Part shown: in pieces, positions 2,890 to 29,596 of the stretch | How the letters are laid out: the number at the start of each line of letters is the position of its first letter | How positions within the stretch are numbered: the first letter of the stretch is position 1 | From: Podarcis gaigeae | Taxonomy: Eukaryota | Strand: one strand, 5' to 3' | Length of the DNA: 64,000 nt | Assembly: GCA_964106915.2 (NCBI GenBank) | Contig: OZ066927.1 | Program-made: the position numbers and the translations under genes | Notes under the pieces: model-generated | What the model was told of the DNA's origin: nothing | The model's input: only the letters and a program-made list of their open reading frames with translations | Database searches by the model: none

Positions 2890-3411
2890 GTACACTTCTG
2901 GGAGACGCCATGTTGGCTGAGTTAATAGGACAACCCAGCTTCAAGGCAATAGTTTCACACGCTTTATCTACTCCCCCTCCCCAAACACACACCGCAAACA
3001 TATTTCCTCCCCTCCCCGCAAAAAAACGCCACGGAGGAGGACGAATCCACTCTTTAAGAGGAACGATCTGCTGTCTCTCCAGTAATTGCTACGGGGTTGG
3101 GGGTGGGGAACCGAGAAAGAGCGTGAGATCTAGAGTCAGACAAGCGGAGTGAATGCAATCCGCAGCGAGTAACCTTTTAAACCGGCCTGCGCGCGAGTTG
3201 CGTGTATGCTACCGCTCGCTGGCGTGCGTTTCAAAGCCTCGATTATTCTCCGCGCGATCCTCGCCCTGTCCTGTCCTAAGGCAAGCTCGATCCCCCAAAC
3301 CTTTATGCTTTAACTTTCGGAATAAGATTCCCCCTCTCCCTTCATCCGGTCCAGTATAGTGAAGTTAATTGCTAGAGGGCAGGACGAAGGAGAGAGAAAA
3401 TTAGAAGGGGT

Positions 3412-5959: not shown

Positions 5960-6918
5960 TGTCAGATATCAAATAATATTTTAATTTCTGAATACTTTCA
6001 ATTTTTCCTTGGAATATAACACACAAAGACTGGACCAAACAGTTTTCAGTTATTATAACTTTTACAGTATACAGAAATGTTGCACTTAAAAAAAAAACCC
6101 TTCAGCTTTTTTTTCTTTAAAACACAAAAACTGTAAACTCTAAGATACTGAATCAACCACATTATCTATAAGTGCCAACAGTAGTGTTATTTTTTTTGTC
6201 ATGCTGAATTCAATGGTTTTTTTTCTTTTTTCTTTAAAAAAAGGGAAAATATCAACAAGTATTATAATACAAAGAGCTTGCAAATATACAAACAGATAGA
6301 GGAACTTGGTAACAATTTAGGACAACTAGGCGGAACCCAATTTTCATTCAAATTACAAAAAAGTTCACTTTGTGATGAAACCCTATGTGTGGTTTTGTGT
6401 GCGTGTGTGTATGTGTGTTTTCATCAAAACTGTGTTGTGTCTTAGACACAATTCCTTCTCCCTCCAAGAAATACGCATTCCCTTCCAAAATTCATGTTTT
6501 GTCTTTAAAATAGATATATATATATAAAAACCTAGTCAAGGGAAGGTGGGCTTGCGGGTGGGGAAATAGTTGTGGTTCTCTTTTATTCGATCTCAATAAT
6601 TATAGCTGTCGTAGCTTGGAGCTAAATTTTGGCTGACTAGTTGTAAGTGCGCTTCCATCTTTCCTACTATTGTGGGGAATTTTTTTTTTCTCTTTATGTT
6701 CTTCTCATAAACCTTTCTGAGACAGTTTTAATTCTTTCAGAACTTTTTTTTAAAAAGGATACACAGTTGTAGTTGTTTTTTTTTTAAATGAAGGCAAGAT
6801 TATATCAAAATTATTATAGAACCACAGAATAAACTGGTTTGGAACCAGAAAAAATACAAAAAAAAACCCCAAACAAAATCCTATAGGTACACAGACAACA
6901 TAGGACAAATTAATAATT

Positions 6919-7426: not shown

Positions 7427-7753
<327 letters not shown>

Positions 7754-11295: not shown

Positions 11296-12003
<708 letters not shown>

Positions 12004-14052: not shown

Positions 14053-14482
14053 CTTCCCGTCTCATTCCAACCTTGAGGCATTTTTTGAGGCGACAATATT
14101 GGCACTGGTTGCGGTGATGTTGGTCAATGGGACAGTTCCGGTTGGCGCGGCACGTGTAGCTGAGGTTCCTGCGGACGCTGCGCTTGAAGAAACTCTTGCA
14201 GCCTTCACACGTGAATTGCCCGTAGTGCTTGCCGCTGGACTTGTCCCCGCACACCACGCACTCGATGTGCTGCTGCTGCTGCTGCTTCTCGCCCTGGCTC
14301 TGCTGGCTGCCTTGGTTGGTCTGCGCGGGCGTGCTGGGAGGGCCCCCTTGGCCCGGCGTCTGCGGGGTGTGCGGGGCGCCCGTCGGGGGTCCCGGCACAG
14401 GGGGCGCTTGCGAAGGCTGCGTTCCTTGCGGGCCGGCCACATCGTCCTGCGGGTCTCGCCACGTGCCAACTACCATTGCCAT
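14053..14482 (-). CDS. NR2F2: NR2F2/COUP-TFII coding exon 1 (N-terminal region plus two C4 zinc-finger DNA-binding domain)
   Basis: ATG at 14482-14480. Translates [12 protein letters not shown]...[74 protein letters not shown] is the NR2F2 form (NR2F1 has LTYTC). Donor AAG|GTATTG at 14053/14052; 430 nt, phase 1. Confidence 0.98.
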
Positions 14483-16830: not shown

Positions 16831-16985
16831 TCTCCGCGATCAGCTCACCCAGCTCTCTATATAGTGAACTTTGACACGACGGCTGCAACTTAGCACACGT
16901 TGCCATGGCGACCGCTCGCCTTATAAGGCAAGAGGCTGCCTTTGACTGGTCAAAAGCTCCCGGACCTCCCCTCGCCCCTCATTGG
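16793..16985 (-). promoter_or_regulatory. NR2F2 core/proximal promoter cluster
   Basis: TATAAAT 16799-16793; TATATA 16863-16858; DR1 GTGTCA-A-AGTTCA 16877-16865; RFX X-box GTTGCCATGGCGAC 16899-16912; CArG CCTTATAAGG 16919-16928; TTTGAC-TG-GTCAAA 16941-16954; CCAAT 16985-16981. Confidence 0.75.
16865..16877 (-). promoter_or_regulatory. DR1 nuclear receptor element (RAR/RXR/COUP-TF type) abutting the TATA box
   Basis: GTGTCA A AGTTCA, 1 nt upstream of TATATA. A DR1 element of this kind is recalled from the mammalian COUP-TFII promoter. Confidence 0.75.
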
Positions 16986-19421: not shown

Positions 19422-21904
19422 CCTGGATATATCCTGGATATATAGGTGATCGCAGCCTATATAAGGAAAATTCTCCCCATATATCACCACCATATCTTAT
19501 TTTATCAGAAGAAATCTTATGATTCTGCTGAATGCAAAGACTACCAAAATAAAAATTAAAAAATCCGAAAGGGGAAATAACGACCCTTCTGTATTAATCG
19601 TTTTCCTGCAGGATCGCAAAAAGAGAAAGCAACTAATCACTGAGAACTAAAATAGACGGAGCTCACTCAAGCCCTAACATCAAATGCTTTGATAGTGTAC
19701 GTCTGTTCATCCAAAGGATGGAACTATTAAAAATAGCAGAGGTGGGGAGTTGGCAAGTTCATGGCTGACTGGTTGTTCATTCTCTCTTTCTCTCTCCCCC
19801 CCTCCCCACATTACACAGCAACATAGGATCGCTTAAAGAGAACGATTCTCAAACCAATTCATCATCCATAACTGTCAATTTACAGAGCTCAGTTATAATC
19901 CCAGACCTTATTTATTGCCTTGCAAGTAAGGATCCATTTTGCAATTTCTGGGGAGAAGCAATAGTGGTACGTATTAATAATACCTATCCACGTTCCCATT
20001 TTTTAAAACAGGTGTACAATCATCAGGAGATCCGGGATGTTAAATAGAAAAAAGTGTGGAATATTTTAAGGGAAACGTTAGGCTAAGCGAGGTGGGGAAG
20101 CAGGAACATCCCCTCTTTATTTTTCCCTGGCGAAAGGTGCGGGGATGGGGAGAGTTTGGTAAAATAACAACAATGACAACAAGAAACCCTCCCTTCCTGG
20201 CTTCTTTGCAACGAAGTTTGGACCCTCTGAAGTGAAATCAGTGGGGGGAAACCGCTGGGTTACGTGGGGGGAAGACTCAATGAATGCTCACTGTGTTGTT
20301 TGCCTCCCCCCCCCTCGCGTCCCCCTCCCAGCTCCATCCGAAGAGCTATGAATGGGGGAAAGTGGCCCTCCATTGTGCGACACTGAACTTTCAAGTGAAT
20401 GTAATTTTTAACCACTGGCTTGTGGTACTTTGAAAATCACCAGGGGCTGTCAGAGTCGGGCCCTCTGAAAAATTTACAGTGCTAAATTAGAACATATGCT
20501 AGGAGAGCGAGAGATGGAGAGAGGAAGAGAGGACAGAAGTGTGTGTATTGGTGTGTGTGAGGCGGGGGGGGGGGGAGGAGGAGGAAGAGGACCGGCTGGA
20601 AGACTCCAGAAGTACAGTATGCGTCTGCCCCCTAGCGTAAGTCTTTCATCGGCCTGAAAAAAATCCAACTTTCAAAGAAACGCTGCTTTTAAAGGGAAAG
20701 GGACGTGGGGGGAGGACGTAGGCAAAGCGAGACGGGGGGGAGCCAAGCAACTCCTAAACTTCTGTACGTTTATAATATGATTAATTCCTCCGGATTGCCA
20801 GTTAAGGAGTTATGTCATTTTAAAAATAAAATAAAATAGCATCTTTTTGTGCTCCGGACTTGCAAACTTCCGGGAAAATTGTGATTTTTTTTAAGGGAGG
20901 AGGCGACATAGGATGGATAAGGAATCCCCCCGCCGGTCTAATAGGGAGAAGCGAGTGTGAGCGAGTGAATGTGCGTGCGTGCGTATTTCTCGCGCTAGGG
21001 AAAGTCTAGAGCTCTTCCACGCGGCTTTTTTTTTTAAGTCACATCAGCCTGAAGATTATTACCCCCCCCCACTCCCCAACTTCCAACAATTAAAAGGAAC
21101 AAACAAAACTTTGCGCCTGGAAACCTGGATTTGGCAACAGATATCCCCTCTGGCAATGGTAAGTACCTCTACTTTATCATCCATCAGAGATTTTAAGGGG
21201 GTAAGGATAAAGCGGAGCTGCGGAACGGGGACTGCAAAGAAGGCTAGTCGTGAAACTCAATTTTGCTCCTGGAAGAAGTGTGTGTGGGGGGGGGAGAGAA
21301 ACCCAAGCAAAAACGCACGTGGCTACAAATTCTTGCAGTTTCATTTCCTATTCCCTGCCTTAGAGAGGTCCCTTTTCCTCCCCCCTTTTCAATCACTGCT
21401 TATACCTACAGCAATACGACCTTGAGATTTTAGACTGGTTCTGACTCAGAGAGGCATCATCATCATCGAATCCGAACCGGATTTGGAAGGGGGGGCACCC
21501 TTTGGATAGCTGGAAAAGGGGCTTTATAGAGAAGCATATTTTTCACGGCATACACCCACACACACATAAGGACCTTTCTCTCAATTAGTAGTTGATGTAA
21601 AGTCCACACACACACATCGCCCCCCCCACCCCGCTCCCGGCACAAATCCCGCCCTCCCCACGTAACCTTTGAAAGCAGAGTTTTCGTCCCCGACCCTCAA
21701 ACCATTGACTTCGGGGGTGCGGGGGAAGTTCTCTGAATTTCAACGGAGGGCATTACTTTTGCGCTTCGGATTTCAGCCTTTAAAATGAAATAAGTAAGGA
21801 ATGAGAGAGGGGGAGAGAGACCCGCACGGCCACAAACCAGGTCGCAAGGAGAAGGGGAAAGAGAGAGAGAGAGAGAGAAATTTAAAAAAGAGAATGGAAC
21901 ATAC

Positions 21905-21947
21905 CCAAAACATATTTGCCTTGTTCAAAATCCCAGATCGCTTGCAT
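21905..21947 (-). CDS. NR2F2: NR2F2 alternative upstream first coding exon (V2/isoform-b type, DBD-less, 281 aa)
   Basis: AAGATG CAA GCG ATC TGG GAT TTT GAA CAA GGC AAA TAT GTT TTG G|GTATGT = MQAIWDFEQGKYVL plus 1 nt. Phase 1 matches the exon 2 acceptor. Resembles the recalled human isoform-b N-terminus MQAVWDLEQGKYGF. 43+528+275=846 nt. Confidence 0.9.
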
Positions 21948-22471
21948 CTTCTTCCTGTTGTTTGGCAGCTGATGGCTTTTAAATTACTATTTTTTAAGGA
22001 GAAAAAATGGGCAGGAGAAAACCCCCCCTTAGGCAATGAAAACGTATCGCCCTGGTATTTATCTTAGCGATTGTACAAACTGATTTTGGAAAGGAGAGCG
22101 AGGGGTGGTTACTATTGGGGTGGGGGTGGGGGAGAACCTGAAGGGATCAGTGAACGAAAAAGAAAAAAAAAGAAAAAGAGCGACGAAAGGATAAGATCTT
22201 TCTCAATCTATAAAGGAATGTGTTTTGCCCCCCTGTGTATTTTGAGCGTGGAGCCTTGGAACAGGCGGCAGGGAGGAGAAATGACAATAATAATAATATC
22301 CTATATATGCACTCTCTTAAGTTTAAACAGAGCGGGTCCGAGGGGGAGTTTGCTTCACAGCGGTTGAAGAATGCGCGCCTCTCCTTTAAGAAAAAAAAAG
22401 GGGGGGAGGAAAGAGCCCCCACCCAAACGTTAAGGTAGCAGATATCTATCTTCTCATTCCTTAGAAGGAAG

Positions 22472-29443: not shown

Positions 29444-29470
<27 letters not shown>

Positions 29471-29474
<4 letters not shown>

Positions 29475-29596
29475 GATAGGTAGCCGTGTTGGTCTGCCAT
29501 AGTCAAAACAAAAAAAATTCCTTCCAGTAGCACCTTAAAGACCAACTAAGTCAGTTCTTGGTATGAGCTTTCGTGTGCATGCACACTTCTTCAGAT
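29471..29596 (-). mobile_element. Penelope-like retroelement terminal fragment with minimal hammerhead motif
   Basis: GGTAGCCGTGTTGGTCTG...GTAGCACCTTAAAGACCAAC...ATGAGCTTTCGTGTGCATGCACACTTCTTCAGAT resembles reptile Penelope pseudo-LTR ends. Flanked by ATTTGTGTGTGT on both sides (29441.., 29595-29606). Confidence 0.7.
29561..29596 (-). ncRNA. Minimal type I hammerhead ribozyme core (stem I truncated)
   Basis: Minus strand AU-CUGAAGA-A-GUGUG CAUG CACAC-GAAA-GC-UC-AUAC: CUGANGA and GAAA boxes, 5-bp stem II, palindromic AGCU stem III, UC cleavage site. Confidence 0.6.

Follow-up and report, generated by a model that had tools for sequence, protein, structure and literature searches.

A conserved upstream exon in the lizard Podarcis gaigeae probably encodes the start of the NR2F2 isoform without a DNA-binding domain

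NR2F2 (COUP-TFII) is encoded on the minus strand of a 64,000-nt stretch of Podarcis gaigeae DNA, which was analyzed at its full length and is called the window here. Upstream of the first exon of this gene lies a 43-nt open stretch, exon 1b, that ends in a splice donor. Is this stretch the coding start of a second NR2F2 product without DNA-binding domain (DBD), and, if so, how old is that start? A DBD-less NR2F2 isoform has been described in mouse and human (PMC7016888, PMC5785710), and the human form (Iso2) is reported in PMC10073109 to be transcribed from an upstream alternative start site whose use depends on methylation. Human isoform b, also known as COUP-TFII_V2 or NR2F2-Iso2 (NM_001145155), and its mouse orthologue likewise begin with an alternative upstream first exon. 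As in the lizard, they are without AF-1 and the DBD but retain the whole ligand-binding domain, including Leu231 and Leu232.

The 281-aa product discussed below is this known DBD-less isoform b/V2/Iso2 of human and mouse. The original prediction presented exon 1b as hidden and the isoform as one of the human context; it is neither hidden nor human-only, because the product is annotated in lacertids as isoform X3 and has been described in both human and mouse. The isoform itself is already known, and only its age seems to be unpublished. In our judgment the 43-nt stretch is very probably the coding start of NR2F2 isoform b, carried on a transcript with its own promoter and giving a 281-aa ligand-binding-domain dimer partner of full-length COUP-TFII.

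Results

The coding part of the canonical first exon (exon 1a) covers 430 nt (14053–14482, minus strand), begins with the main ATG at 14482, encodes AF-1 and both zinc fingers, and ends in phase 1. Shared exon 2 (528 nt, 11388–11915, minus strand, with its acceptor at 11915) encodes the hinge together with the larger share of the ligand-binding domain, and the coding part of shared exon 3 (7427–7701, minus strand) supplies the end of that domain, the Leu231/Leu232 dimer surface, and the stop codon. The main protein has 410 aa, or 417 aa by way of an acceptor 21 nt further upstream, which extends exon 2 by 21 nt (11916–11936, minus strand) and adds the residues VSSLFTA. This 417-aa form shows no differences from isoform X1 of Podarcis and Lacerta in RefSeq (P0345), which identifies the host gene of exon 1b as NR2F2 rather than a paralogue; the genome holds three further COUP-TF-type loci, whose exon 2 matches stand at 95, 87, and 71%. 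The seven VSSLFTA residues fall in the hinge, and comparable ones are present in gene models from marsupials, lizards, snakes, sturgeon, and rays. One skate model splices an alternative first exon onto a VSSLFTA-type extended exon 2; the same combination of exon 1b with the extension would encode 288 aa in the lizard.

The coding part of exon 1b (21905–21947, minus strand) comprises an ATG-initiated run of 14 codons (MQAIWDFEQGKYVL) plus one base (G), so that it too ends in phase 1, and is followed by a 5′ splice donor of moderate strength, GTATGT (21899–21904, minus strand). The start context at 21947 is AAGAAG-ATG-C, with A at −3 and C at +4; this C, like the modest donor, weighs against use of the exon. 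Exon 1b sits upstream of canonical exon 1 and in frame with exon 2, its ATG 7,465 nt from the main ATG (14482) and its donor separated from exon 2 by an intron of 9,989 nt. Exons 1b, 2, and 3 together give 846 nt, encoding 281 aa without an internal stop. The architecture originally described, namely an ATG with a purine at −3, 14 codons plus 1 nt, and a G|GTATGT donor about 7.4 kb above the main ATG, is thus all present on the minus strand, and the computed stop-free spliced frame bears out the claimed phase fit to exon 2 and 281-aa length.

This anatomy alone is no better than chance. On the minus strand between 15 and 64 kb, nine sites, exon 1b included, combine an ATG with a purine at −3, 5–40 open codons, and a phase-1 donor whose score equals or exceeds that of exon 1b, which has the weakest donor of all nine. 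Such a number of candidates in 49 kb would suit a reading in which exon 1b is, in this lizard, a silent relic or a chance open frame that is not spliced.

What takes exon 1b beyond chance is homology, and the ATG-free leader described below adds to this. We built a profile from eight distinct non-squamate N-termini of isoform orthologues and scored against it every ATG-started open 14-mer that the window contains, 1,086 in all. The exon 1b peptide scored 42.4 (z = 9.7), and the runner-up 7.9. It agrees with the RefSeq lacertid isoform X3 at 13 of 14 residues and with mammalian counterparts of equal length and position at 10–11 of 14. Judged by sequence, the peptide is orthologous to the N-terminus of mammalian isoform b/V2/Iso2, and the original prediction was right to identify exon 1b as a lizard V2/isoform-b first exon and to call it conserved. 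The primate N-terminus given in its support agrees with simian UniRef entries P0143 and P0146; a simian entry and the window share 10 of the 14 residues, the window differing by I4, F7, V13, and L14.

Over the whole 281-aa frame, 280 residues are identical between the window and isoform X3 (P0125) of Podarcis muralis and Lacerta agilis. The exception is residue 7, leucine in the RefSeq entries for COUP transcription factor 2 isoform X3 (P0125; XP_028562888.1, XP_033023383.1) and phenylalanine in the window. The short isoform is annotated in lacertids under XP_028562888.1 and three more accessions, and also in tegu and cobra. Leu14 (21906–21908, minus strand) is common to all three squamate lineages represented, namely lacertids, tegu, and cobra; the other aligned rows have Phe, except for sturgeon with Cys. 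A relic might show itself in the single change, F7, relative to lacertid relatives, and in the lack of records on 21881–22150 in four runs out of 24, a zero that may be false, as the search had no positive control. Those four comprised three contig sets and a raw RNA run of which about 12% was read; three of the four contain all sampled exon-2 words. A run search with exon 2 named no RNA data set as a recorded holder, which speaks for neither side. Against the silent-relic reading, however, stand the z score of 9.7 on a squamate-free profile, the intact ATG, frame, and donor, and the annotation of the exon in close relatives, tegu, and cobra, and we regard it as highly improbable. In P. gaigeae itself, exon 1b is probably transcribed and spliced, from a putative start site in its leader.

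To survey orthologues, exon 2 was used as query and 30 clusters were opened, with no more than 15 members of each; the sequences are predicted gene models, and the counts refer to the matches listed. Among these, 26 of 103 DBD-less NR2F2-type proteins carry an exon 1b-type start. The remainder begin differently, in many cases apparently through intron read-through in unspliced contigs. The 14-codon start occurs in primate, carnivore, bat, turtle, bird, tegu, frog (three genera), and caecilian models, as well as in bichir, sturgeon/paddlefish, and, weakly, conger eel, and the full length of 281 aa recurs in models from bat/shrew, lacertids, frog, caecilian, bichir, sturgeon, and eel. Of the 19 database proteins profiled, which range from simians to the ray-finned bichir, sturgeon, and conger, 18 have the start immediately ahead of AVQRGR; in the cobra model, the start is present and is followed by an insert before this shared part. 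Tetrapods share 10–13 of the 14 residues of the window peptide, bichir and sturgeon share 6–7, and conger shares 3. All 14 aligned rows have M1 and Y12, and residues 7, 13, and 14 vary even within tetrapods. In guppy and killifish models, a diverged conger-type start has 13 codons, and sharks have 17; these changes in length preserve the frame. Coding constraint on exon 1b thus has indirect support at the sequence level, from an exon length that is fixed or changes without loss of frame and from residues that do not vary. Because the same start recurs across these bony vertebrates, we infer that the exon was present in the bony-vertebrate ancestor, and it was probably present in the jawed-vertebrate ancestor as well. 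The original prediction had made the isoform ancestral to amniotes; its presence in amniotes holds, but the dating is too young, as amphibians, ray-finned fishes, and probably sharks have the exon. The coelacanth models among the matches listed (P0135, P0122) are without an exon 1b-type start.

The case for the jawed-vertebrate ancestor turns on sharks and skates. Their NR2F2 X3/X4 models (P0251, P0252, P0328, P0329, P0327) are DBD-less like the lizard isoform, and we take them for orthologues because they carry NR2F2-type diagnostic residues and because of identity to full-length NR2F2 of the skate itself; a tree of the shared domain (24 rows) was poorly resolved, with 2 of 15 branches strongly supported. 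In four shark/skate models that are NR2F2 by these residues, the first exon ends in an MQIISDTEQR-like stretch in the same phase. On a 10-position profile, this stretch scores 20.6 in skate and sawshark, a value reached by none of 5,000 shuffles, and 14.3 and 14.6 in whale shark and horn shark, reached by 11 and 15 of 5,000, respectively; the best score among 110 control N-termini was 9.4. Unlike the lizard start, the shark/skate stretch is 3 codons longer, is preceded by 54–55 more residues, and begins with Thr instead of Met in two of the four sequences. On balance, its sequence makes homology to the exon 1b start probable. The 54–55-residue extension (P0251, P0252, P0328, P0329) is 83–87% identical among sharks and skate, and that of whale shark contains a short frame-shifted stretch before returning to frame. 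No match to the shark extension was found in the leader of the window. Fish and shark starts appear too diverged for projections copied from human models. Of the three candidates that the sawshark N-terminus brought up as a query, only two were cartilaginous-fish clusters and none was a lamprey or hagfish protein, which does not imply absence there, and a degenerate pattern for the orthologous exon DNA gave no matches in metagenome contigs. Titles and abstracts yielded no mention of conservation of the isoform beyond mammals, although an alignment may stand in the original reports on V2 (EMBO J 2011, Biochem J 2013).

Several neighbors of this start were considered. Human isoform c is of a different type, 261 aa from Met21, comprising only the ligand-binding domain and having no conserved N-terminus of its own. 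In the lizard frame, Met21 lies within exon 2, and a start there would give a 261-aa form without the 14-residue peptide. DBD-less NR2F1 models likewise consist of the ligand-binding domain only; those among the matches listed have unrelated, lineage-specific start peptides. In 50 kb around two of the three paralogues (25.6 kb upstream of NR2F1 and 10.9 kb upstream of the gene on contig C29, the third paralogue being on C31), the best profile score among 754 ATG peptides was 6.25. We therefore set aside the idea of an exon shared by COUP-TF genes and older than the NR2F1/NR2F2 split, as nothing matched near NR2F1 or the C29 gene. A faint likeness to the start of Anolis NR2F1 X2 was also dropped, no such exon having been found in the 25.6 kb upstream of NR2F1 in this genome.

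The C29 gene (G000:C29:5510953-5520644, plus strand) is a third COUP-TF gene, 87% identical in exon 2 and matching the Rhineura "COUP transcription factor 2-like" protein; we take it to be an NR2F5-type paralogue. A 128-nt stretch is 97.7% identical between its locus (L004, ~3242–3369) and the window (29469–29596) and is probably a young interspersed repeat. The NR2F1 locus (L001, ~6630–6700) and the window (16853–16927, minus strand) have in common a 75-nt non-coding element (78.7% identity, E = 1e-9) that lies about 2.3 kb above the main ATG of both genes and contains TATA-like words and a direct-repeat-like nuclear-receptor site. Presumably it is the known retinoic-acid-responsive main promoter.

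Above exon 1b, 509 nt are free of ATG (21948–22456, minus strand), with in-frame stops 12–13 codons upstream of the start, and are likely to contain the short isoform's promoter and 5′ UTR. An ATG-free run of this length was matched by none of 155 background tiles and by 1.5% of 2,000 dinucleotide shuffles. A TATA-like TATATA (22302–22307, minus strand), about 355 nt above the ATG, is a candidate core promoter by consensus match. The CpG observed/expected ratio of the leader is 0.63–0.67 (background median 0.20, maximum 0.57), and the raised CpG extends beyond the leader over the whole region from 20 to 24 kb.

The leader also contains an acceptor-like pyrimidine tract with CAG (22138–22160, minus strand). 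Its use would make exon 1b an internal exon of 233 nt with 22137 as the first base. An upstream non-coding exon would then splice into 22137, the promoter would lie farther out, and the protein would be unchanged. The site has 16 pyrimidines of 20 before CAG|G at 22138, a richness that recurs at no more than 3 of 193 background CAG|G sites. T-rich promoter DNA can, however, yield such tracts by chance, human Iso2 is reported to have its own upstream start site (PMC10073109), and the TATA-like element sits in an ATG-free, CpG-raised leader that reaches to 22456. An internal exon 1b is for these reasons quite unlikely, and we retain the reading of exon 1b as a first exon behind its own promoter.

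Pfam finds zf-C4 in full-length P0345 and not in short-isoform P0125; in the latter, one residue away from the frame of the window, it finds Hormone_recep only. The short product consists of the hinge and the ligand-binding domain, without AF-1 and both zinc fingers; PDB 3cjw spans its residues 40–281, and Leu231 and Leu232 are present at the same numbers as in human. AlphaFold2 on alignment A1 (36 rows) gave a mean pLDDT of 34.7, which is uninformative, and the helix it placed at residues 3–14 was not used.

Discussion

In the mechanism that we favor, a second promoter, some 5 kb upstream of the main promoter, would drive a transcript that skips zinc-finger exon 1a. Exon 1b would be spliced to exon 2, giving a 281-aa protein of hinge and ligand-binding domain. 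This protein would likely dimerize with full-length COUP-TFII as a context-dependent partner, by which chromatin binding would be shifted up or down. According to PMC10073109, Iso2 co-precipitates with full-length NR2F2 in human cells, the L231A/L232A substitutions abolish co-precipitation of Iso1 and Iso2, and loss of Iso2 leaves some chromatin peaks weaker and others stronger; the protein was seen there with a specific antibody and acts through the dimer surface. The direction of the isoform effect is reported differently between studies (PMC10073109, PMC7016888). Expression, methylation control, and function of isoform b have been shown in human cells only, and the dimer mechanism, likely to apply in lizards, is carried over from them by analogy.

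A different account would place selection on the DNA rather than on the peptide: an upstream promoter, or its transcription, would be maintained, for example because it competes or interferes with the main promoter, 5 kb downstream of it, and the 14 codons would be regulatory DNA with the protein as by-product. The locus is CpG-rich over several kilobases, and the local frame-shifted stretch between whale shark and horn shark looks like conservation at the DNA level. In some human cells, moreover, the short transcripts are described as minor; in human gonad-like cells, the canonical NR2F2 transcript is reported at about 1000-fold above other variants (PMC10768475). On the other side, bony vertebrates retain the start codon, the frame, and the phase, insertions and deletions comprise whole codons, and the human protein is reported as antibody-detected and working through its dimer surface (PMC10073109). 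Selection on the promoter alone thus seems unlikely to us, and we return to the coding start of a dimer partner as the preferred reading.

A larger proposal, which we put forward tentatively and think somewhat doubtful, is that the DBD-less modulator is an NR2F2-specific invention of jawed vertebrates, about 450 million years old, whose peptide has been selected for a function of its own. That age corresponds to the split of cartilaginous fishes, placed at about 450 million years (PMC6238376). The peptide, of the form M-Q-x-hydrophobic-W-D/E-x-E-Q-x-K-Y, could serve as a partner-binding helix or as a signal for stability or localization.

The work on this isoform in human and mouse, as far as the cited papers represent it, mostly concerns cancer and stem cells, and the age and spread of the start argue for a role in normal development. 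A single 43-base exon could be removed in Xenopus, chick, or fish with the full-length protein intact, which makes the role of the isoform testable. If the modulator is indeed ancient and selected, the "cancer isoform" would really be an old developmental regulator.
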